A stretch of 64,000 nucleotides of DNA. It comes from a virus. This document shows, one piece after another, positions 11,806-63,726 of the stretch; the first letter of the stretch is position 1, and each line of letters opens with the position of its first letter. Location: IMG/VR virus record IMGVR_UViG_3300029850_000008; one strand, 5' to 3'. The notes beneath the pieces are model-generated. The model saw only the letters and a list, made by a program, of their open reading frames with translations. It made no database searches and was not told the origin of the DNA. The translations under genes and the position numbers were made by a program.

Positions 11806-14322
11806 ATGACATACAAAGAATTTTTAGAGACAAAGATTGAGCTTGCGACCGAAAGCGGATTTGTTGTAAGTCAAGAGGAAGTCAACAGTGCATTAAAACC
11901 ACACCAGAAAGATGCGGTGATGTGGGCGCTAAGAGGTGGCAGAAGGGCGTTATTTGAGAGCTTTGGACTTGGAAAGACGGCACAGGAAATTGAATTCTGC
12001 CACTTGGCAGCGAAACATAGTGGTGGAAGGGCATTAATTGTGTTGCCGCTTGGAGTAAAACAAGAGTTTACCAGAGATGCTGTGGAAATTCTTGGCTATG
12101 AAAAACCAGAATACTGTCGGACGATGGAAGAGGTGGAAAAAAGTACAAGTCAGATTGTATTAACTAACTATGAACGAGTCAGAGATGGAGACATTAGACC
12201 GGATTATTTTGTGGCAACTTCTCTTGATGAAGCGAGTGTATTGAGGAGTTTTGGAAGCAAGACCTATCAAACATTTTTGGACAAGTTCAAGAATGTACCA
12301 TATAAACTAGTAGCGACTGCTACACCGTCACCAAACAAATACAAGGAACTAATTCACTATGCTGGTTACCTGGAAGTGATGGATACTGGGCAGGCGTTGA
12401 CAAGATTCTTTCAGAGAGATAGCACAAAGGCAAATAATTTGACATTGTACCCAAACATGGAAGATGAGTTCTGGATGTGGGTAAGTAGTTGGGCATTATT
12501 CATCACTAGACCCTCAGATCTGAATCCTAATTATTCAGACGATGGATATGATCTGCCGCCGCTGGAAGTAAGATGGCATGAACTTCCAGTACACTACGGA
12601 GATACCTCTGGTAAGGATGGCCAGATGCAACTATTTCAAGAAGCAGCAGAAGGGTTGAAAGAAGCTGCATCAGTAAAGCGTGACAGCATAGATCAGCGAG
12701 TGGCCGAAATGAAGAGAATCGTAGAAGAATCACCAAATGATCATTTCTTATTGTGGCATGATCTGGAAAATGAGCGTCATGCCATTAAAAAAGCATTACC
12801 GGATACTGTAGATATTTATGGAGCTATGGACTATGACCTGAGAGAACAACTGGTGATTGACTTTTCAAATGGAGCGACCAAATTATTTGCCACAAAGAAA
12901 TCATTGTCGGGATCCGGATGTAATTTCCAGAGATATTGTCACAGGGAGATTTTTCTGGGAATTGATTATGAGTTTAATGATTTCATTCAGGCCGTGCACC
13001 GATGTTACAGATTTTTACAGAAAGAACCAGTTGTGATCGATATTATTTACATTGAGAATGAGAGACAGATAAAAGAAGCATTGATGGAAAAATGGAAGAA
13101 TCATAATCATATGGTTTTCAAAATGATAGAAATCGTAAAAAAATATGGACTGACGTCTGCAAATAAAGAGGAGCGGCTGGAAAGGAAAATGGGAGTGGAA
13201 GGAAGTAGAGAAGAAAGAACAGTAAGAGGAAAACACTATGAAGCGGTATATGGTGACTGCGTGGAAGAAACTAGAACAATGGAAAGCAACAGTGTAGATC
13301 TGATCCACACATCAATCCCATTTGGTAATCACTATGAGTATAGCGCCAATTATAACGATTTTGGACACAACCAGAATACAGAACGATTCTTTGAACAGAT
13401 GGATTTTCTTACACCAGAGCTGCTGCGGGTATTGCGTCCTGGAAGAGTGGCAGCAATTCATGTAAAGGATCGTGTGCTGTTCGGAAATGCTACAGGTACG
13501 GGAATGCCAACTGTCGAACCTTTTCATGCACTGTGTATCAGTCATTATATGAAGCATGGTTTTCAGTATTTTGGCATGATTACAGTTGTTACAGATGTGG
13601 TTCGAGAAAATAACCAAACATATCGTTTAGGGTGGACGGAACAGTGCAAAGACGGTTCAAAGATGGGGGTAGGATGCCCAGAATATATTTTACTATTCCG
13701 AAAACTCCCGACAGACAGATCTACTGCATATGCTGATGTACCAGTTAAGAAGTCAAAAGAGGACTATACCAGGGCGCAGTGGCAGATTGATGCACATGGC
13801 TACTGGAGATCATCAGGTGATCGGTTGGTCGGCAAGGAAGAGCTGGAAAACATATCTGTAGATAACTTGCAGGCGGTATACCGGAAATACAGCCGGGAAA
13901 GTGTATACAACTATGAAGACCATGTGAATCTGGCAAAGAAACTGGATGAAAACGGAAAGTTACCGGCTACGTTCATGGTGGTTGCACCGGGATCATGGAA
14001 TCAGTTGGAGGTATGGGATGATATTAACCGGATGCGGACACTGAACACCACACAGAGCCGTAGACGTGCTCAAATGCACGTGTGCCCGTTACAGCTGGAT
14101 ATCGTTGAGAGAATCATCAATAGATACAGTAATGAGGGTGATACTGTCTATGATCCGTTTGGCGGTCTTATGACAGTACCTATGATAGCTGTGAAAATGC
14201 ATAGATTTGGAAAAGGATGCGAGCTGAATGCTGACTATTTCCGGGATGGAATTGGTTATTTGCAAGCAGTTGAAAACGAGATCGACTCTCCTACGTTGTT
14301 CGATTTTATGCAAGAAGTATAG
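11806..14322 (+). CDS. Superfamily-2 helicase fused to N6/N4 DNA methyltransferase
   Basis: GLGKT (I), DEAS (II), TATPSPN (III), QAVHRCYR (VI), then SIPF (DPPY-like motif IV) followed by DPFGGLMT (AdoMet motif I): beta-class order. Confidence 0.75.
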   Translation: MTYKEFLETKIELATESGFVVSQEEVNSALKPHQKDAVMWALRGGRRALFESFGLGKTAQEIEFCHLAAKHSGGRALIVLPLGVKQEFTRDAVEILGYEKPEYCRTMEEVEKSTSQIVLTNYERVRDGDIRPDYFVATSLDEASVLRSFGSKTYQTFLDKFKNVPYKLVATATPSPNKYKELIHYAGYLEVMDTGQALTRFFQRDSTKANNLTLYPNMEDEFWMWVSSWALFITRPSDLNPNYSDDGYDLPPLEVRWHELPVHYGDTSGKDGQMQLFQEAAEGLKEAASVKRDSIDQRVAEMKRIVEESPNDHFLLWHDLENERHAIKKALPDTVDIYGAMDYDLREQLVIDFSNGATKLFATKKSLSGSGCNFQRYCHREIFLGIDYEFNDFIQAVHRCYRFLQKEPVVIDIIYIENERQIKEALMEKWKNHNHMVFKMIEIVKKYGLTSANKEERLERKMGVEGSREERTVRGKHYEAVYGDCVEETRTMESNSVDLIHTSIPFGNHYEYSANYNDFGHNQNTERFFEQMDFLTPELLRVLRPGRVAAIHVKDRVLFGNATGTGMPTVEPFHALCISHYMKHGFQYFGMITVVTDVVRENNQTYRLGWTEQCKDGSKMGVGCPEYILLFRKLPTDRSTAYADVPVKKSKEDYTRAQWQIDAHGYWRSSGDRLVGKEELENISVDNLQAVYRKYSRESVYNYEDHVNLAKKLDENGKLPATFMVVAPGSWNQLEVWDDINRMRTLNTTQSRRRAQMHVCPLQLDIVERIINRYSNEGDTVYDPFGGLMTVPMIAVKMHRFGKGCELNADYFRDGIGYLQAVENEIDSPTLFDFMQEV

Positions 14323-18666: not shown

Positions 18667-20421
18667 ATGAGTAATATATACCAGTTAAGAGAACTACTTA
18701 GAACACAGACAATTTATGATTTGCCGTTACGAGTTGCATACTATGCAAGAGTCAGCACAGATCATGATGAACAGAAAACATCAATCAAGAACCAGGATGA
18801 TTATTTTAAGGAATTGATAAAATCAAAGCCGAACTGGAAATTTATGGGAGGCTATATTGATGAGGGGATTTCTGGAATTGCCGTAAAAAATCGTGAAGAT
18901 TTTTTGAGGATGATTGATGATGCTAAGAATGGAAAGATTGATTTGATACTGACAAAAGAAATTTCCAGATTCGCTAGGAATACACTAGATAGCATCAAAT
19001 ACACCCGTGAACTTTTGGCATGTGGTGTATGTGTATGGTTTATGAATGATGGAATCAATACGATTGATGAAGACAGTGAGTTAAGATTGACTATTATGGC
19101 AGCTATGGCACAGGACGAAATCAGAAAGATGTCTTCCAGGATTAAATTCGGTCAGGCTCAGTCAATAAAAAATGGCGTAGTAATGGGAAATTCAAGATTG
19201 TATGGTTATGACAAAAAAGATGGAAAACTGACAATCAATGAAGCTGAAGCCGAAATGGTTCGATTCATTTTTGAAAGTTATGCATCTGGCAAATGGACAA
19301 CACCACAGATTGAACGATACCTATATGAAAAAGGGTACAGAAACTATAATGGAGGTAAAATCAACCGTGGAGTTATCAAAAATATCATAAAGAATCCAAA
19401 GTACAAAGGTTATTATGCTGGTGGAAAAGTAAAAGTTATTGATATGTTTACAAAAAAACAGATGTTTCTTCCAAAAGACCAATGGGTTTATTACAAGGAT
19501 GATGGATCAACGGTTCCGCAAATCATAGATGAAAAGACTTGGGAAGATGCAAATTATTATATGAAGAGCCGTGGTGACAATATAAGAAGTCACAGAACGG
19601 TGTTTAAGTATGGTAATGTGTTTACTGGAAAGGTAATTTGTGGGATAGATGGTGCTTCGTATTGGCTACGTGAACACAAGATACGTGGAAAAGAAAGTGA
19701 TCCAAGATGGGTCTGTAGTCATAAAATCAAAAATGGAGCAAATTCTTGTCTATCGGTTCCTGTCAGAGAAAGCGACTTGAAACAAATGGTTGCATCAGCA
19801 ATCAGTCAAGCAGCTGGAAACTCTAAAGATGTTATTGATTCATATATGAATTATTACTTAAAAGCCATTGATGATTCAAAAGAAAAAGAGGGAGAAATAG
19901 CAGTTTTAAGAAAAAATATTGAATCCACAAAATTGAAGATGGAGAAAATCCTGGATTACAATTTGAACGGATCAATATCTGATGATGAATTCTTAAAAAG
20001 AAACGCTGCGTATAAAAAAGAGATTGAAAACGCAGAAGAGAAAATTCTAAAATTGTCTAAAAAACCGGAAGAGCCGGATTCTATTGCAAGGAAAATCGAA
20101 CAGATAAGGGAATACTTGGCGAACACAGAAATTGTTTCTGCTGATGACATAACTAAACAAATTGTCGAAAAATTAATTGAAAAGATAATTATATTACCAG
20201 AAGAGGAAAATGGTATAAAAGTCATCAAGTCAGAAATATACCTTATAAATAAGGAACTGTATAAGTTTTGTAAGGATATGGGGACAAAAAATAGTTGTTC
20301 AGATAACGTAACTTTGATCATGTTCCCTAAACAACGCATGGAAATTACTAATGAAAATGCGCATTGTGTGAACCAGTATAAAAGATTTTCAATAGAATTT
20401 TCTCTCTTTGTAAGATTTTAA
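18667..20421 (+). CDS. Large serine recombinase (integrase)
   Basis: YARVSTDHDEQKTSIKNQ catalytic Ser region, resolvase + recombinase + zinc-ribbon + coiled-coil length (584 aa). Confidence 0.9.
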   Translation: MSNIYQLRELLRTQTIYDLPLRVAYYARVSTDHDEQKTSIKNQDDYFKELIKSKPNWKFMGGYIDEGISGIAVKNREDFLRMIDDAKNGKIDLILTKEISRFARNTLDSIKYTRELLACGVCVWFMNDGINTIDEDSELRLTIMAAMAQDEIRKMSSRIKFGQAQSIKNGVVMGNSRLYGYDKKDGKLTINEAEAEMVRFIFESYASGKWTTPQIERYLYEKGYRNYNGGKINRGVIKNIIKNPKYKGYYAGGKVKVIDMFTKKQMFLPKDQWVYYKDDGSTVPQIIDEKTWEDANYYMKSRGDNIRSHRTVFKYGNVFTGKVICGIDGASYWLREHKIRGKESDPRWVCSHKIKNGANSCLSVPVRESDLKQMVASAISQAAGNSKDVIDSYMNYYLKAIDDSKEKEGEIAVLRKNIESTKLKMEKILDYNLNGSISDDEFLKRNAAYKKEIENAEEKILKLSKKPEEPDSIARKIEQIREYLANTEIVSADDITKQIVEKLIEKIIILPEEENGIKVIKSEIYLINKELYKFCKDMGTKNSCSDNVTLIMFPKQRMEITNENAHCVNQYKRFSIEFSLFVRF

Positions 20422-33646: not shown

Positions 33647-33718
33647 TGGGCTATCGCCAAGCGGTAAGGCACATGACTTTGACTCATGTATGCGTTGGTT
33701 CGAATCCAACTAGCCCAG
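33647..33718 (+). tRNA. tRNA-Gln (anticodon UUG)
   Basis: Manual cloverleaf: acceptor UGGGCUA/UAGCCCA (U1-A72), D GCC/GGC, anticodon stem CAUGA/UCAUG loop CUUUGAC, T GUUGG-UUCGAAU-CCAAC; no encoded CCA. Confidence 0.85.
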
Positions 33719-33980
33719 CTTGGTAAGATTTATTTACCTTACCAAAATAGCATATCATTTATGCTATTCCTCCTCATTCATATTACCACCTAGCGGAAAG
33801 CTGATAAAAGAACCGTCACAAGGTTCGGGTGGTTTTCTGGTTTGGAAGCCAGGACATGTGCAAAGTTCCGAACTGTTTACCACATCATAGGGATGTTTGC
33901 ATGGCCTTTGTTATGGCTGGTGGATAAGAACCATAACAGTGAAGGGGATTTCTTGCAGAATTCAAATCCCCTTTATCTCA

Positions 33981-34053
33981 GGAGCTTTATTTCAGTTGGT
34001 AGAAAGACCGCCTCATAAGCGGTAAGTCATCGGTTCGAGTCCGGTAGGCTCCA
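33981..34053 (+). tRNA. tRNA with CAU anticodon (Met, or Ile2 if lysidine-modified)
   Basis: Manual cloverleaf: acceptor GGAGCUU/AGGCUCC, D UUUC/GAAA, anticodon stem ACCGC/GCGGU loop CUCAUAA, T AUCGG-UUCGAGU-CCGGU. Confidence 0.8.
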
Positions 34054-34078
34054 TTATTTCAATGGAGGTGTGAAGAAT

Positions 34079-34270
34079 ATGGCAGGAAGAAAATTAAAAC
34101 GATTGGACAAAAAAAAATTTGAAGATGCTTTGAATGGGTATTTGAATGGAAAATATATCCAGTTAGAAGCAGCAAAGATTGCAGGATGCAATAGGGATAC
34201 TTTTTTGAAATATGCAAACATGATTTTACTTGGAGAACCGATTCCGAATGGGGTGTTTTGGGATGATTAA
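34079..34270 (+). CDS. Small HTH protein
   Basis: GGAGG RBS; ..IQLEAAKIAGCNRDTFLKY.. HTH-like. Confidence 0.45.
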   Translation: MAGRKLKRLDKKKFEDALNGYLNGKYIQLEAAKIAGCNRDTFLKYANMILLGEPIPNGVFWDD

Positions 34271-34430
34271 TGCTGATACAAAGATATTTCCAGATGGAGC
34301 AAAATGGGTGGTCTGCCCATATTGTCGAAAAAAGGCGGTTAAGGTATTGGAAGATACCAGAATTTATCATATGCCGTTCCGGTGCCATGGAAGTAACTGC
34401 AAAAAGGATTTTATTGTGAATGTGGGGTAA
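34263..34430 (+). CDS. Cysteine-rich KTR-like zinc-ribbon protein
   Basis: CPYC...CHGSNC pattern. Confidence 0.4.
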   Translation: MINADTKIFPDGAKWVVCPYCRKKAVKVLEDTRIYHMPFRCHGSNCKKDFIVNVG

Positions 34431-34801
34431 TGAATATGTCTTGTTATTATGAACCGGGAACAGATAGATACTACGCATGTAGCATGTGTGATAGTCGAAG
34501 GATACTTGGCTGTATATTCAATAATCCGCAAGAAAAAGAGGTGGAATCAATGGAAAATACTAAAATTTTATATGCTCATGAGGCAAATAGGATAGCCAAA
34601 GAAAAGAACAAAGACATCCAGGAAAATTTAAAAGAGATTGAAGAAAAAATTAGATGTGCTGCGGATAACGGTTATTTTTCTGTTATGTTAAACGGATCAT
34701 TAAGAAAGATAGTTAATGACGAGCTGGTGAAACTTGGATACGATGTGCAAACATATTTGAATCATAATGAAAATGTGTATGTAATCAGTTGGGACAAATA
34801 A
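34430..34801 (+). CDS. Hypothetical protein (alternative start ATG 34550 has the better RBS)
   Basis: GAGGTGGAATCA precedes ATG 34550. Confidence 0.45.
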   Translation: MNMSCYYEPGTDRYYACSMCDSRRILGCIFNNPQEKEVESMENTKILYAHEANRIAKEKNKDIQENLKEIEEKIRCAADNGYFSVMLNGSLRKIVNDELVKLGYDVQTYLNHNENVYVISWDK

Positions 34802-34865: not shown

Positions 34866-37064
34866 ATGCAAGAAGGATCATTTGAATGGTATAAGGCTAT
34901 TTTTAATAGTCTTTTAAAATCTGACATGAAAAACTTTCAAAATCAAAAGGATTGTTATGATTTGCTGCTAAACATGAAAATTGATTTGAAGTTTGATGAT
35001 AAGCAGATAAAAAACTATGCTTTAAAAATCAGTCAGTATACACACAAAATGGCAGATTATATGGCCGGAATGACTGGAAGTGGACAATTTGATGAATTGT
35101 ATTGGAATTTACTTCTGTTCGAAGCCCCGGATCTTCTGGATTCCTATTGTCTGTATGTTGAGAAAGATAGAAAACCTCAAGAACGCTTTTACCAGCCAAG
35201 AAGAAAAACCTTGATAAAGGTTGTGAACTTGTTACAGCGGTTGGAAGATGACGAACTGGACGAAGGATTTGTACACATGCCAGCACGTGTCGGAAAACTG
35301 ATTTCCAATGATACTCCTGTTTTCACAAAAGATGGATGGAAAAAGCATGGAGAATTAAAACTGGGAGATAAGGTTATTGGAAGTGATGGAAATTTTACTA
35401 CGGTTATTTGTGTTCATCCAAAATATCATACAACTCATACCGTAGAATTTTCTGATGGAACAAAAATTGAATGCCACTTTAGGCATGAATGGACTGTATA
35501 CGATTCACTTGGGAAACGATGGATTACAACAGAAACAAAAAATCTTATAAAGAGCCAAACCTATGGATTTTTTAAAGAACGATATTTTCTTCCAATAGTT
35601 TCAACAAATTTGGACTTAAAAGTACCATTAGTTCAAGAAAAAAGATCAATCAAATCTATTAGGAAGAGCAATCCAAAACAAGGTAACTGTATTACGGTTT
35701 CAAATAGCGATGGTTTGTATCTGGTTGGAAAAACAATGATTCCAACGCATAACACGCAGATCATTACACTTGGTATGAGCTGGCATTGTTGCCGAAATAC
35801 AGAGAAAAGCAATCTTTATTGTTCCTACAAAGAAGATGCTGGAGGAGCATTTCTTGATGGTGTAAAAGAAATCTGGACAGATCCTATATATCGTCATGTA
35901 GATGTGTTCCCTAAAGCACAGATTGTTGATACGGATGCAAAAGCAAACACGATTGATCTGGAACGCAAGAAAAAATACAAGTCTCTGTCTGGAAAAGGCC
36001 TTACTTCTGGATTGAATGGATTGTATGATGCAAATGGTTGGTTGGTTGCTGATGATATTTTATCTGGAATTGAGGACGTGTTAAGTCCAGATGTTTTAGC
36101 AAGAAAACAGATGCTGTTCGATAACAACCTTATGAAAAGAAAAAAAGAACAGTGCAAGGTTCTTTATAACGGAACAATTTGGAGTCTCCATGATATTTAT
36201 ATGGATCGTGTAAACTTCCTGGAAACAGATCCAGAAGCAAAAGATGTAAGATGGGAAGTTCTGAAGATCCCTGCTCTTGACCCAGAAACCGATGAAAGTA
36301 ACTTCGACTATGATTATGGAGTAGGATTCAGCACAAAATACTACAGAATGGAACGTGCAAAATTTGAAGCAAATGACGATATGGCTTCATGGTTTGCACA
36401 GTGTCAACAAGAACCGATAGAACGTGATGGAGCGGTATTTAATCCGGAGCATATGAATTTTTATAATGGTGTTCTTCCAGACGAAATTCCATTGAAAATA
36501 GTCGCTGCATGTGATGTGGCTCTTGGTGGAACGGACTTTCTTTCCATGCCAGTTGCCTATGTATATGAAGATGGATCTGTTTATATTCATGATGTGGTAT
36601 TTGACAGTAGTGAGAAGTCAGTAACTCAGCCTAAAGTAGTAGATTGTTTGATCAGGAACAATGTTACAAATTCCTTTTTCGAAGCAAACAATGGTGGAGA
36701 GGGATACAAAGATGATATTGATAGGTTGTTAAAAGAGAGAGGACACAAGATTAATCTGGTATCAAAATTTGCACAACAGATGATTGTCAACGCTGGAAAG
36801 GGTGGATCAAAAACTGCGCAGCGGAAAGAACAAAGAATCTGGGACAATGCACAGACAATCAGAAGCTTTTATTTCCGGGACTCCGGACATCAAAGCCTGG
36901 AATACCGAAAATTTATGAATCAGCTTTATTCTTTTACTGTAAACGGTAAAAATAAGCATGATGATAGCCCAGATAGTTTGGCAGCATTAGCAGTATTTTT
37001 AAATAAGGGTAGTGGAACTCAAACAACTCAAGTAGTGTCAAGTCCTTTTGGACGTAGGAGGTAA
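34866..37064 (+). CDS. terL: Terminase large subunit, intein-containing
   Basis: Position before portal; P-loop PARVGK/T split by insert; size 732 aa = 580-aa extein + 152-aa insert. Confidence 0.8.
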   Translation: MQEGSFEWYKAIFNSLLKSDMKNFQNQKDCYDLLLNMKIDLKFDDKQIKNYALKISQYTHKMADYMAGMTGSGQFDELYWNLLLFEAPDLLDSYCLYVEKDRKPQERFYQPRRKTLIKVVNLLQRLEDDELDEGFVHMPARVGKLISNDTPVFTKDGWKKHGELKLGDKVIGSDGNFTTVICVHPKYHTTHTVEFSDGTKIECHFRHEWTVYDSLGKRWITTETKNLIKSQTYGFFKERYFLPIVSTNLDLKVPLVQEKRSIKSIRKSNPKQGNCITVSNSDGLYLVGKTMIPTHNTQIITLGMSWHCCRNTEKSNLYCSYKEDAGGAFLDGVKEIWTDPIYRHVDVFPKAQIVDTDAKANTIDLERKKKYKSLSGKGLTSGLNGLYDANGWLVADDILSGIEDVLSPDVLARKQMLFDNNLMKRKKEQCKVLYNGTIWSLHDIYMDRVNFLETDPEAKDVRWEVLKIPALDPETDESNFDYDYGVGFSTKYYRMERAKFEANDDMASWFAQCQQEPIERDGAVFNPEHMNFYNGVLPDEIPLKIVAACDVALGGTDFLSMPVAYVYEDGSVYIHDVVFDSSEKSVTQPKVVDCLIRNNVTNSFFEANNGGEGYKDDIDRLLKERGHKINLVSKFAQQMIVNAGKGGSKTAQRKEQRIWDNAQTIRSFYFRDSGHQSLEYRKFMNQLYSFTVNGKNKHDDSPDSLAALAVFLNKGSGTQTTQVVSSPFGRRR
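35298..35753 (+). mobile_element. Mini-intein (152 aa, class-3-like) in the TerL Walker A motif
   Basis: LISNDTPVF (block A), GTKIECHFRHEW (block B, H and W), GNCITVSNSDGLYLVG (block F, C), MIPTHN/T (block G); excision gives PARVGKT. Confidence 0.75.
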
Positions 37065-61152: not shown

Positions 61153-62148
61153 ATGTCTAACGAAATCAGAAATCAAGTAATTATGGAACTCCAGGGAGAC
61201 TTTACAACGGAACAATTAAAGATCATTGATTTGGCAGTGGCTAAGGCAATGAGGGGATATAGGATTGAGCGAGAAGAGACGCTTCCGGCGACAACAGTAT
61301 GTGAAATGCCTTTAGATATAAGGGAATTCCTTGCAAGGAAGAAAATGAAAGGTTGTTCTGATGGAACAATCGAACAGTACAAAGATTTGTTGTCGGATTT
61401 TGCATTGTGGGCCAGAAAAGATCTTCGGCAGGTAAAAGACCTTGATATTTTAGCGTATTTGGATTATAGGGCGAAGCTTGGAGCATCGAACAGAACATTG
61501 GATAGTAAGCGTCTCATATTATCATCATTTTATACTACGATGCATGAAACTGGGAAAATGCAGTATAATCCGTCTAAGACAGTTGATCCAGTGAAATACA
61601 AGGCAAAAGTTCGGGAACCGCTGAACGATATGGAATTGGAAAAAGTTCGGTCTGCTTGTCGGACTCTAAGAGAAAAAGCGTTGTTTGAAGTCTTATATGC
61701 AACTGGCGGACGTGTGAGTGAGATAGTTGGAATTAATTATACGGAAATAGACAAGCAAACCAGAAGCGTAGTAATAACTGGAAAAGGTGACCAGGAAAGA
61801 TATGTATTTCTAAATGCGAAAGCCATGTTAGCTATCGAAAATTATATAAAAAGCAGGGGAGATGAAAGCCCAGCATTATTTGTTGGTGCAAGAAAACCAC
61901 ATAATCGTTTGGGGAAAGAAGCCATTGAAAGAGAGCTGAAAGCAATAGGGGAAAGGTCTGGGATTGACAGACCAGTTTTCCCACATTTATTAAGACATAC
62001 GTTTGCGACTGATATGCTTGAACATGGAGCATCTCTTAATGAGGTATCGGAGATGTTGGGGCACAAGAAATTGGATACAACAAAGATTTATGCTAAAATC
62101 AGTACGAATACATTGGCAATTTCTTATAAAAAACATCATGCCGCATAA
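61153..62148 (+). CDS. Tyrosine recombinase (XerC/D-like)
   Basis: ..ATGGRVSEI.., ..HLLRHTFAT.., ..GHKKLDTTKIY.. catalytic motifs. Confidence 0.85.
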   Translation: MSNEIRNQVIMELQGDFTTEQLKIIDLAVAKAMRGYRIEREETLPATTVCEMPLDIREFLARKKMKGCSDGTIEQYKDLLSDFALWARKDLRQVKDLDILAYLDYRAKLGASNRTLDSKRLILSSFYTTMHETGKMQYNPSKTVDPVKYKAKVREPLNDMELEKVRSACRTLREKALFEVLYATGGRVSEIVGINYTEIDKQTRSVVITGKGDQERYVFLNAKAMLAIENYIKSRGDESPALFVGARKPHNRLGKEAIERELKAIGERSGIDRPVFPHLLRHTFATDMLEHGASLNEVSEMLGHKKLDTTKIYAKISTNTLAISYKKHHAA

Positions 62149-62943: not shown

Positions 62944-63726
62944 ATGACACCAAACCAAAAACGAAAATCAGTAATTGATAAGTACGATGAAATTATTGGA
63001 AGAAACATATATAACCAGACGCTTCGGGACTGGTGCTACAAGCCATATAAAGATGGAAAATACTACAGTGATTGTTCTTCTTCCATCTGCTATGCCTACA
63101 AAGAAGCAGGACTCGGATTTGGAATTTTGAATACCGCAGGAATGTATAATTCCAAGAAATTGACCACAGTCAATGTGGAGATCAAGGACGGCATTCCAAA
63201 TGAGAAAGATTTGAGAATGGGAGATATGCTTCTGTTTGCCGGAAATGATTCTAGTAGACCTCTTCGTATTGGCCACGTAGAAATGTATGTTGGAGGCGGT
63301 AAAATTTGTGGGCATGGAAGCGGAAGACCATCTTACAAGGACTTGAAAACATACTGCAAAAACCGCTACAATTCATTTGCTCCTGGTGGATGGAGAAAAG
63401 GCGTTGTGTGTGTAAAAAGATATATCCAAGATGAAACTGAACCAGAAGGATGGGTAAAAGATTCTCATGGTTGGTGGTGGAGTAATGGAGACGGAACATT
63501 TGCTAAAAGCGAATGGAAACTGATTAATCATCATTGGTATCTCTTTGGCGCAAACGGATATATCAGAAAAGGCTGGCACCGTTGGAATCCAGACACAAAA
63601 CAGGTAGATCCATTTGACGGATCTGGAGATTGGTATTTCTTGGACGATACAGAAAATGGAGATTTTGAAGGTGCTTGCTGGCATAGCCGGGACAACGGGG
63701 CACAAGAAATCTGGTATGTTGAGTAA
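62944..63726 (+). CDS. Endolysin: NlpC/P60-like peptidase + cell-wall-binding repeats
   Basis: ..SDCSSSICYAY.. (Cys), ..IGHVEMYVG.. (His); C-terminal GW..G.W..WYLFG..GY...GW repeats. Confidence 0.75.
   Translation: MTPNQKRKSVIDKYDEIIGRNIYNQTLRDWCYKPYKDGKYYSDCSSSICYAYKEAGLGFGILNTAGMYNSKKLTTVNVEIKDGIPNEKDLRMGDMLLFAGNDSSRPLRIGHVEMYVGGGKICGHGSGRPSYKDLKTYCKNRYNSFAPGGWRKGVVCVKRYIQDETEPEGWVKDSHGWWWSNGDGTFAKSEWKLINHHWYLFGANGYIRKGWHRWNPDTKQVDPFDGSGDWYFLDDTENGDFEGACWHSRDNGAQEIWYVE

Follow-up and report, generated by a model that had tools for sequence, protein, structure and literature searches.

A predicted class 3 mini-intein in the Walker A motif of the terminase large subunit of a gut phage

Described class 3 inteins and the terminase gene of the window

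Class 3 inteins are defined, on the DnaB intein of mycobacteriophage Bethlehem (MP-Be) as prototype, by the lack of an N-terminal nucleophile, the residue triplet Trp-Cys-Thr (WCT), a Thr at position +1 and an obligate cysteine in block F (PMC2807308). Their presence in phage terminase large subunits (TerL), mostly in the P-loops, was reported by Tori et al. 2010 (PMC2807308), and Lys|Thr was termed the "classic" P-loop insertion site by Kelley et al. 2016 (PMC5050341). The class 3 mechanism has been experimentally shown for the DnaB1 inteins of Mycobacterium smegmatis (Msm; DnaBi1) and M. chimaera (Mch; crystal structures PDB 6bs8, 6rix, 6riy; PMC5222942, PMC6195587), which are mini-inteins of 139–145 amino acids without endonuclease and are likewise inserted in a P-loop, after Gly-Lys and before Ser/Thr. 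The TerL inteins of actinobacteriophages (APunk gp2; TerL1-a P-loop site) also interrupt the Walker A motif at Lys|Ser/Thr (PMC5050341, bioRxiv 10.1101/2025.01.02.630785); the intein of Gordonia phage APunk (SQVGK|LVAHDTPV...HPRHEW...GRCVEV...TPTHN|S) starts with Leu directly after GK and is treated as class 3 (bioRxiv 10.1101/2025.01.02.630785).

The window analyzed here is a stretch of 64,000 nucleotides of viral DNA (IMG/VR record IMGVR_UViG_3300029850_000008). Its TerL gene contains with high probability (approximately 0.88) a genuine mini-intein of class 3, which interrupts the Walker A motif between Lys and Thr, the classic P-loop site, and by homology would be expected to splice. The gene is arranged as follows:

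34866..37064, plus strand: TerL precursor open reading frame (from the ORF list), 732 amino acids plus stop, comprising N-extein, intein and C-extein
34866..35297, plus strand: N-extein, amino acids 1–144, ending in the first half of Walker A (direct reading)
35298..35753, plus strand: predicted class 3 mini-intein, 152 amino acids, precursor residues 145–296, Leu1 at 35298–35300, boundaries from intein-less alleles
35754..37064, plus strand: C-extein, amino acids 297–732 plus stop, remaining TerL ATPase and nuclease domain (alignment A1)

The best sequence and fold match of the window intein were the Msm and M. chimaera DnaB1 inteins, which share with it the WCT triplet, the His at B:10, the C-terminal His-Asn and a spacing of 21 residues from the block F Cys to the terminal Asn. 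They differ in that the overall identity amounts to approximately 25–27%, residue 1 is Leu in the window intein versus Ala, block B reads CHxxHEW versus DxxHxW, and the host is a phage terminase versus a bacterial replicative helicase; Cys48 of the Msm intein, its redox partner, is not conserved in the window intein. Among annotated phages, the actinobacteriophage TerL inteins gave the best matches (44–46% identity over both splicing halves): They agree with the window intein in host protein and insertion site and, in the case of APunk, in the combination of Leu1 and WCT. In contrast to the 152-residue mini-intein of the window, however, they are full-length inteins of approximately 330 amino acids with a LAGLIDADG endonuclease, and they are embedded in exteins of a different terminase family in phages of Actinobacteria. 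Compared by description, the window intein has every sequence feature that defines the MP-Be DnaB intein, whereas the latter comprises 341 amino acids including an endonuclease, resides in a phage helicase and carries Ser at B:7.

An earlier note on this DNA had regarded it as unusual for the terminase of a Firmicutes phage to carry a class 3 intein with Leu1. This was not borne out: In the best 150 of 6,868 relatives, Leu was the commonest residue 1 (77/150), and GK preceded the intein in 119. The TerA inteins of Clostridium thermocellum are listed in InBase as class 3 and would offer a direct precedent from Firmicutes; since no account of them as class 3 inteins came up in the literature search, they are not counted as evidence. 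The P-loops of phage TerL are already documented as sites of class 3 inteins, Leu1 examples included, and the current understanding is unchanged.

Family homology, the P-loop ATPase and the position among the head-packaging genes identify the host protein as a terminase large subunit of a phage. The spliced TerL sequence matched phrog_38 of PHROG ("terminase large subunit") at E 1.4e-48; TIGR01630 of NCBIfam (phage terminase large subunit) was matched at E 3.7e-8, the Pfam T7 terminase RNaseH-like domain weakly (amino acids 550–663), and the annotated TerL of Clostridium phage Maintenon with 38.8% identity and coverage of both exteins (tblastn). The sequence WLVADD in the C-extein probably represents a Walker B-like motif. 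Genes of an SPP1-type portal, a Mu-F-like protein and the major head protein follow directly downstream, and the head, tail and replication modules surrounding TerL are complete. The carrier is a temperate gut phage of Clostridia/Lachnospiraceae; a profile search of genome contigs (alignment A1) yielded 5 prophage loci in genomes of Clostridium sp. and Lachnospiraceae/Clostridiales, whereas a scan of the genome contigs with the single spliced TerL protein retrieved no relatives. The window TerL and many of its gut-metagenome copies carry no Pfam call; an annotation as intein-containing terminase with a mature product of 580 amino acids is due.

Insertion site and intein-less alleles

Translation of positions 35298–35753 gives, in agreement with the earlier note, exactly 152 residues (LISNDTPVF...MIPTHN) between the flanks ...HMPARVGK and TQIITLG.... 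The residues P-A-R-V-G-K at nt 35280–35297 form the first half of Walker A, with G143 and K144 being invariant in alignment A1. The motif is split by the insert (ARVGK|T) and restored to ARVGKT only by its excision, which in silico results in a protein of 580 amino acids.

The intein boundaries follow from alleles without the insert: P0001 and P0005, whose TerL is 98–99% identical to that of the window, lack exactly these 152 residues, and the same borders are set by the empty alleles P0025, P0037, P0056 and P0097. The junction reads PARTGK|SQMITMG in the 98–99% identical 580-residue alleles and PARVGK|TQIITLG in others such as P0025; from the latter, the empty target of the L001 type deviates at 14 of 31 nt around the junction. 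An intein start at Ser3, corresponding to a class 1 reading, was rejected because the empty alleles join GK straight to Thr or Ser; it would leave GKLI-T, which matches none of them. Of the 120 closest TerL homologues, approximately 84 were empty, 25 possessed the mini-intein and 4 a full-length intein; P0030, a 732-residue mini-intein allele belonging to a related lineage, is recorded in 50 blocks of the collection. The segment is a mobile insertion that shows a precise, in-frame presence/absence polymorphism at a conserved functional site.

The many 732-residue alleles, together with the purifying selection on the segment (see below), might also be expected of an accessory domain of the TerL family that is retained in the mature enzyme and never excised. 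The precise absence from 98–99% identical alleles argues against this, and while a conserved, non-excised domain in homologous TerL proteins would, according to the earlier note, have refuted the intein, approximately 84 of the 120 closest homologues had no such segment. In addition, a GK|T P-loop with 152 residues inside would presumably be unable to bind nucleotide, as has been argued for P-loop inteins in general (PMC5050341, PMC6195587), and the segment is homologous to self-splicing inteins with their catalytic residues kept. The likelihood of a retained accessory domain is thus close to nil. The GC content of the insert is 32.9% versus 37.9% in the exteins; this is weakly suggestive of a foreign origin and was given no weight.

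Fold, splicing blocks and predicted splicing route

Against the PDB sequences, phmmer matched the intein to 6bs8 (E 4e-13) and 6rix (E 5e-13), in both cases with the W, C and T-H-N positions aligned, and an exhaustive phmmer search retrieved 6,868 relatives, of which 722 reached E ≤ 1e-10; as judged by sequence, the intein match exceeds chance by far. The AlphaFold2 model of the intein reached a pLDDT of 91.8 and a pTM of 0.85. In Foldseek the class 3 DnaB inteins 6riy, 6rix and 6bs8 occupied the top ranks (E ~1e-10, target-normalised TM 0.85–0.91), and the PDB matches listed were inteins or other HINT domains (37 at E ≤ 1e-3). According to the model, the segment is predicted to adopt a HINT fold with the splicing blocks A, B, F and G that is closest to the class 3 DnaB inteins. 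The comparison with Pfam intein models, proposed in the earlier note, did yield a match to Hom_end_hint, but at E = 0.011 and below the cutoff of this model; NCBIfam gave no match to the intein. Pfam and NCBIfam searches of intein and precursor returned sub-threshold Hint matches only and were therefore not used for classification. The possibility of a further intein in the window, e.g. in helicase or primase genes, was rejected: In all six frames, the HMM of the related mini-inteins (A2) matched the TerL ORF alone.

The following blocks carry the predicted catalytic residues:

35457..35492, plus strand: block B, GTKIECHFRHEW, aligned to ...AQHQW of Msm DnaBi1 and MchDnaB1
35679..35729, plus strand: block F, QGNCITVSNSDGLYLVG, with the predicted branch-point nucleophile Cys131 (F:4) at nt 35688–35690
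35739..35756, plus strand: block G, I-P-T150-H151-N152, then Thr+1 (Thr297) at nt 35754–35756

The earlier descriptions of block A (LISNDTPV), block B with Trp65 at B:12, and block G (IPTHN followed by Thr) proved correct. For block F, the Cys is present, but the string formerly quoted, GNCITV..., puts it third; the register with Cys at F:4 starts at Q128 (QGNC...). Block B contains Cys59 (B:6), His60 (B:7), His63 (B:10, nt 35484–35486) and Trp65 (B:12, nt 35490–35492). Cys131 corresponds in the alignment to the catalytic cysteines of Msm DnaBi1 (Cys118) and MchDnaB1 (Cys124), and in each case the terminal Asn lies 21 residues further on. The WCT triad that had been proposed from the sequence (W65, C131, T150) is in register with 6bs8 and 6rix and belongs, with G13, G18, H63, H151 and N152, to the invariant columns in 28 mini-inteins (alignment A2). 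In the best 150 of 6,868 relatives, the triplet residues were Trp in 148, Cys in 147 and Thr in 146 sequences, followed by Ser (125/150) or Thr (22/150) at +1. As for the remaining features of class 3, residue 1 (Leu145 of the precursor) is not Cys, Ser or Thr, and the B:10 His, the penultimate His and the C-terminal Asn are all found. The window intein does not conform to class 1, which is characterized by an N-terminal Cys/Ser/Thr nucleophile and usually Asp at F:4 (here Leu and Cys, respectively), nor to class 2 (KlbA-like), as the WCT triplet is present.

An active intein that follows a class-2-like route, with Thr+1 attacking the N-terminal junction directly, no block F thioester and a merely coordinating Cys131, would equally lack an N-terminal nucleophile, and it might find some support in a block B that is unlike those of the characterized class 3 inteins (His B:7, Cys B:6). 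Class 2 is, however, defined by the absence of WCT (PMC2807308), whereas W, C and T are present and invariant here; in structure, too, its closest relatives belong to class 3, and all three signature-bearing mini-inteins tested in one study spliced by the class 3 route (PMC5222942). Such a route is considered very unlikely. For the preferred class 3 reading, the splicing steps can be outlined from the homologous inteins Msm DnaB-1 and MP-Be DnaB, for which the mechanism was established experimentally: After translation, Cys131 (F:4) would attack the Lys144-Leu145 bond with the help of His63 (B:10) and of Trp65 packing, so that a branched intermediate with a thioester is formed on block F. The N-extein would then pass to the Thr297 (+1) side chain, resulting in the block G branched intermediate, before cyclization of Asn152 would free the intein and an O-to-N acyl shift would produce the normal Lys144-Thr297 bond and, with it, ARVGKT. 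At the N-terminal junction, catalysis may differ in its details, because the window intein has CHxxHEW versus Asp or Ser at B:7 in the characterized class 3 inteins.

The CHxxHEW motif marks a clade: In the best 150 of 6,868 relatives, Cys B:6 was present in 111 and His B:7 in 117 sequences. It is conceivable, though improbable, that the B:6 Cys of this clade could serve as a built-in disulfide partner of Cys131, whose oxidation would reversibly block TerL maturation and DNA packaging. If true, this redox switch, acting in phages whose gut Clostridia hosts are strict anaerobes, would represent a phage-level analogue of the redox trap of Msm DnaBi1; the conserved B:6 Cys may instead be purely structural or catalytic.

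Endonuclease loss, selection and allele states

Full-length inteins of 333 amino acids occur at the identical site in the 913-residue TerL alleles P0022 and P0031; they start with Leu1 and possess the same splicing blocks as the window copy. Their identity to the window intein is 66–74% across the shared parts, and their exteins are nearly identical to those of the window TerL (97–98% for P0022). In contrast to the window copy, they hold approximately 181 additional residues with two LAGLIDADG motifs (Pfam PF14528 LAGLIDADG_3, PF05204 Hom_end). In the global alignment with P0022/P0031 the mini-intein corresponds to residues 1–98, 270–282 and 294–333 of the full-length form, and both LAGLIDADG motifs fall in the missing region. 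The remnant of this loss is visible as a linker:

35553..35645, plus strand: linker left by endonuclease loss, intein residues ~86–116 (alignment gap, low pLDDT)

The only low-confidence part of the model lies here (blocks 101–110, pLDDT 58, and 111–120, pLDDT 79). That no homing-endonuclease domain is present, as had been noted before, was confirmed by the length of 152 amino acids and the lack of a LAGLIDADG match in Pfam. Since the endonuclease core of approximately 181 amino acids is missing and 152 residues are left in all, the element is classified as a mini-intein; as the alignment shows, the window copy is an endonuclease-deleted derivative of the 333-residue LAGLIDADG-bearing intein. 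Without an endonuclease of its own it would no longer be capable of self-homing and would persist by vertical inheritance and recombination among related phages.

Intein decay usually begins with loss of the endonuclease, which has taken place here, and the domain is not recognized at significance by Pfam or NCBIfam; both would be in line with a splicing-dead relic, i.e. a decayed intein in a non-functional TerL of 732 amino acids within a defective prophage. The dN/dS value is at variance with decay: Between the two mini-intein lineages represented by the window and L003, it was 0.06 for the intein at a dS of 1.44 (exteins approximately 0.03), and the intein is therefore under purifying selection. 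Furthermore, all catalytic residues are intact and invariant in relatives, the ORF is intact, alleles of the same length were found among the 120 closest protein clusters (25 of them) as well as on many contigs, and the surrounding modules are complete as described above. With the Walker A motif of an essential gene interrupted, loss of splicing would kill the phage, and a dead intein would not have been conserved. A relic is accordingly regarded as highly improbable. The reading as a class 3 mini-intein is the one on which the precise absence from empty alleles, the sequence and fold matches to class 3 DnaB inteins, the catalytic residues and the purifying selection all agree. If ATP binding and DNA packaging are performed only by the spliced TerL of 580 amino acids, phage viability would enforce splicing competence; the five mycobacteriophage TerL inteins tested all spliced (PMC5050341). 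As a compact class 3 intein of 152 amino acids with Thr+1 and no Cys1, it is a candidate splicing tool for protein engineering.

In this TerL lineage, one P-loop site occurs in four states: empty, occupied by the endonuclease-bearing intein, by the mini-intein, or by a second, unrelated class 3 intein. This four-state allele series could serve as a model of the intein homing cycle in gut phages. Clustered substitutions were observed at the homing site of the TerL lineage.

Intein insertion at the P-loop of the large terminase

The insert is located in an intact reading frame encoding the large terminase (TerL) as a 732-aa precursor:

34866..37064, + strand, intact TerL precursor ORF, 732 aa
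35298-35753, + strand, intein of 152 residues (LISNDTPVF...KTMIPTHN), precursor aa 145-296

In the translation, the intein is flanked by ...GFVHMPARVGK upstream and TQIITLGMSWH... downstream; its deletion in silico resulted in a 580-aa protein with ...PARVGKTQIITLG..., a Walker A-type P-loop. The observation of the earlier note was thus confirmed: the 152 residues at 35298-35753 and the quoted block strings were all found in the translation; solely the register of block F has to be corrected, as its Cys is the third letter of the quoted string, whereas a block starting at Q128 (QGNC...) places it at F:4. The identification of the host protein also held: the spliced sequence matched PHROG families labelled "terminase large subunit" (top: phrog_38, E 1.4e-48) and TIGR01630 (E 3.7e-8), tblastn aligned both exteins to TerL as annotated in Clostridium phage Maintenon (38.8% identity) while skipping the insert, and the genes directly 3' of TerL encode a 136-aa protein, an SPP1-type portal, a Mu-F-like head morphogenesis protein and a major head protein, with a tape measure gene farther downstream.

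Using the spliced extein as query against 5.8 billion proteins, the closest TerL homologues included the four length classes below.

Length classes among the closest TerL homologues (identities to the spliced query)
580 aa: 95-99% identity; without insert
732 aa: 99-100% identity; identical-type 152-aa insert
913 aa: 98% (P0022) and 85% (P0031) identity; same insert plus endonuclease
923-924 aa: 72-79% identity; different intein at the same site

In the homologue alignment, the gap of the intein-less (empty) alleles corresponds exactly to L145...N296, and their GK abuts T or S (PARTGK/SQMITMG or PARVGK/TQIITLG; single slashes mark the insertion site here and below). The best 120 homologues comprised approximately 84 empty alleles, 25 with a 151-152-aa Leu1 insert, two with a 333-aa Leu1 version and two with a 347-348-aa Ala1 version. 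Genetically, an intein is recognised by just this pattern of sporadic, precise presence and absence at a catalytic motif. A conserved, non-excised domain of homologous TerL proteins, named in the earlier note as a finding that would refute the intein, is contradicted by the exact absence of the segment from these empty alleles (~84/120), and the core intein reading is supported.

Class 3 assignment and proposed splicing route

When compared with all PDB sequences (phmmer), the insert matched the class 3 DnaB inteins of M. smegmatis (6bs8, E 4e-13) and M. chimaera (MchDnaB1, 6rix, E 5e-13), with HEW paired to HQW, NCITVSN to RCVEVDN and MIPTHN to MVPTHN; the spacing of 21 residues between Cys131 and the terminal Asn is that of the catalytic Cys124 in MchDnaB1. 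An AlphaFold2 model based on 28 mini-inteins (mean pLDDT 91.8, pTM 0.85) was uncertain only at residues ~100-120, and Foldseek ranked class 3 DnaB inteins at the top of its PDB matches (E ~1e-10, target-normalised TM 0.85-0.91), followed at lower ranks by class 1 inteins, BIL domains and Hedgehog domains. The sole invariant columns of the 28-sequence alignment were G13, G18, H63 (B:10), W65 (B:12), C131 (F:4), T150 (G:5), H151 and N152. The intein agrees with all sequence-level criteria of Tori et al. 2010 (PMC2807308), i.e. no N-terminal nucleophile, the WCT triplet (Trp B:12, Cys F:4, Thr G:5) and Ser/Thr at +1. Sequence matches, fold ranking and the invariant WCT residues agree with the class 3 type proposed earlier; on these sequence criteria, class 1 is ruled out by Leu1 together with Cys at F:4, class 2 by the WCT triplet. 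Pfam and NCBIfam gave no call for an intein at 35298-35753 (Hom_end_hint, E 0.011, under cutoff), and the precomputed Pfam column was blank for all 732-aa homologues; this abundant intein clade is thus probably under-annotated in metagenomes.

Block B is of the type CHxxHEW (Cys59-His60, window 35472-35477); among the best 150 of 6,868 intein relatives, Cys occupied B:6 in 111 and His B:7 in 117, whereas B:7 is Asp or Ser in characterised class 3 inteins. The Cys/His pair could act as catalytic helper or as redox partner of Cys131, and a redox switch between Cys59 and Cys131 is conceivable.

Compared with the mini-intein alleles at loci L003 and L004 (C-extein 87% identical), the intein revealed a dN/dS of 0.06-0.07 (dS 1.2-1.4), comparable to ~0.03 in the C-extein; P0030, a 732-aa mini-intein allele of this lineage, was present on many contigs from different samples. 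Since an inactive intein within the P-loop of a packaging ATPase that the phage cannot do without would not persist in this way, the window copy is probably active. Based on homology, we infer splicing by the class 3 route: Cys131 would attack the K144-L145 bond to form the block F thioester branch, the N-extein would then pass onto the Thr297 side chain, Asn152 would cyclise with release of the 152-aa intein, and an O-to-N shift would create the K144-T297 bond and a whole ARVGKT. The precursor should be ATPase-dead because its P-loop is split, an argument also found in PMC5050341 and PMC6195587.

Distribution and homing of the intein family

An exhaustive phmmer search of 1.84 billion cluster representatives, with the 152-aa intein as query, retrieved 6,868 proteins at E <= 1e-3 (722 at E <= 1e-10). 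Among the best 150 of these, residue 1 was Leu in 77, Gln in 22, Ala in 17, Glu in nine and Pro in seven; GK preceded the intein in 119, the +1 position was Ser in 125 and Thr in 22, and Trp, Cys and Thr of the triplet were present in 148, 147 and 146, respectively; 32 were mini-inteins and 115 full-length. Typical contexts (PPRHGK/L...THN/SELVS, PPRVGK/L...THN/STL...) are P-loops, most of which are putatively terminase-like. Annotated phages contributed 487 matching records, the best from Gordonia phage TerL genes: APunk gp2 (SQVGK/LVAHDTPV...HPRHEW...GRCVEV...TPTHN/S), analysed among class 3 TerL inteins in bioRxiv 10.1101/2025.01.02.630785, has its class 3 intein, likewise starting with Leu1, at this very P-loop position; a Porphyromonas phage TerL has a Gln1 variant. 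The same study lists 287 class 3 inteins in actinobacteriophages, with TerL as one of just four extein hosts. Tori et al. (PMC2807308) had earlier recorded class 3 inteins in large terminases of phages, chiefly within P-loops; Kelley et al. (PMC5050341) regard Lys/Thr as the "classic" P-loop site, and all five TerL inteins tested by them, at other insertion sites, splice. Given Leu1 in 77/150 best relatives and in APunk, the notion that a Leu1 class 3 intein in a Firmicutes phage terminase is unusual was not supported. Metagenomic and genomic data show the family to be abundant in Firmicutes; the kind itself is well known, and new is a member from a Clostridia/Lachnospiraceae gut phage in mini form.

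The 913-aa alleles P0022 and P0031 contain ~181 extra residues, located between the positions that correspond to residues 98 and 100-113, with two LAGLIDADG motifs (YVLGAWLGDG, LLAGLLDTDG) and matches to Pfam LAGLIDADG_3 and Hom_end. Since they carry the same Leu1 intein plus this part, the window copy is an endonuclease-deleted derivative, with the low-pLDDT linker as its scar. In the 98%-identical empty allele L001, substitutions cluster at the junction: 14 of the 31 nt spanning -13 to +18 differed, compared with 84/1,712 nt elsewhere (Fisher p = 1.5e-10; window 35285-35315 and 35754-35771 versus L001 4118-5860), resulting in V->T, T->S, I->M and L->M; this cluster represents either a target site that resists the endonuclease or a tract of co-conversion. 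The exteins of locus L002 (852-3593) were 97-98% identical to those of the window (34866-37064), whereas its 333-aa endonuclease-bearing intein shared 66% identity over common parts (dS 1.47 against 0.36); conversely, the mini-intein of the window shared 84% identity with its counterpart in the more distant L003 lineage. This discordance suggests that inteins, mini-inteins included, move among these phages via recombination. P0038 (924 aa) and P0094 (923 aa) contain a second, unrelated, class-3-looking intein at the same GK/T or GK/S position (window 35297/35298; Ala1, AEPLDALVLTPDGF...HLW...CQCIMV...VTHN, 347-348 aa, with LAGLIDADG domain); both proteins belong to sister TerL lineages, so that two intein lineages compete for one site. 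The L001 substitutions, the discordance and the site competition fit an ongoing homing cycle.

Phage setting

"Firmicutes phage" is a fair label, as kindred TerL genes occur in the genomes of Clostridium sp. OF03-18AA and AM30-24 and in Lachnospiraceae and Clostridiales MAGs (a Lachnospiraceae MAG being the name source of one homologue cluster). No small terminase was recognisable upstream of TerL (window 34070-34430). Further features are:

473-1378, RecT
11806-14322, 838-aa ORF, matching phage DNA helicase phrog_16 (E 9e-120) and DNA methyltransferase PHROGs
18667-20421, large serine recombinase (Resolvase, Recombinase and Zn-ribbon domains)
33647-33719, tRNA-Gln(TTG), and 33981-34053, tRNA-Met(CAT), both placed shortly ahead of the small ORFs before TerL
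34070-34270, short ORF in small-terminase position
34230-34430, short Cys-rich, zinc-ribbon-like ORF in small-terminase position
34430-34801, short ORF in small-terminase position, phrog_5321 (unknown function)
61153-62148, tyrosine integrase
62944-63726, NlpC/P60 protein

The 838-aa ORF, which contains no intein of the TerL-intein family, may encode an SNF2-type protein or a fusion of helicase and methyltransferase. As RecT, a helicase, a primase-helicase, the large serine recombinase, the tyrosine integrase and two tRNAs are present, the window is a temperate tailed phage or prophage, which the combination of both recombinases with RecT and NlpC/P60 fits; possibly, a second mobile element is included or the phage ends near 61-64 kb.
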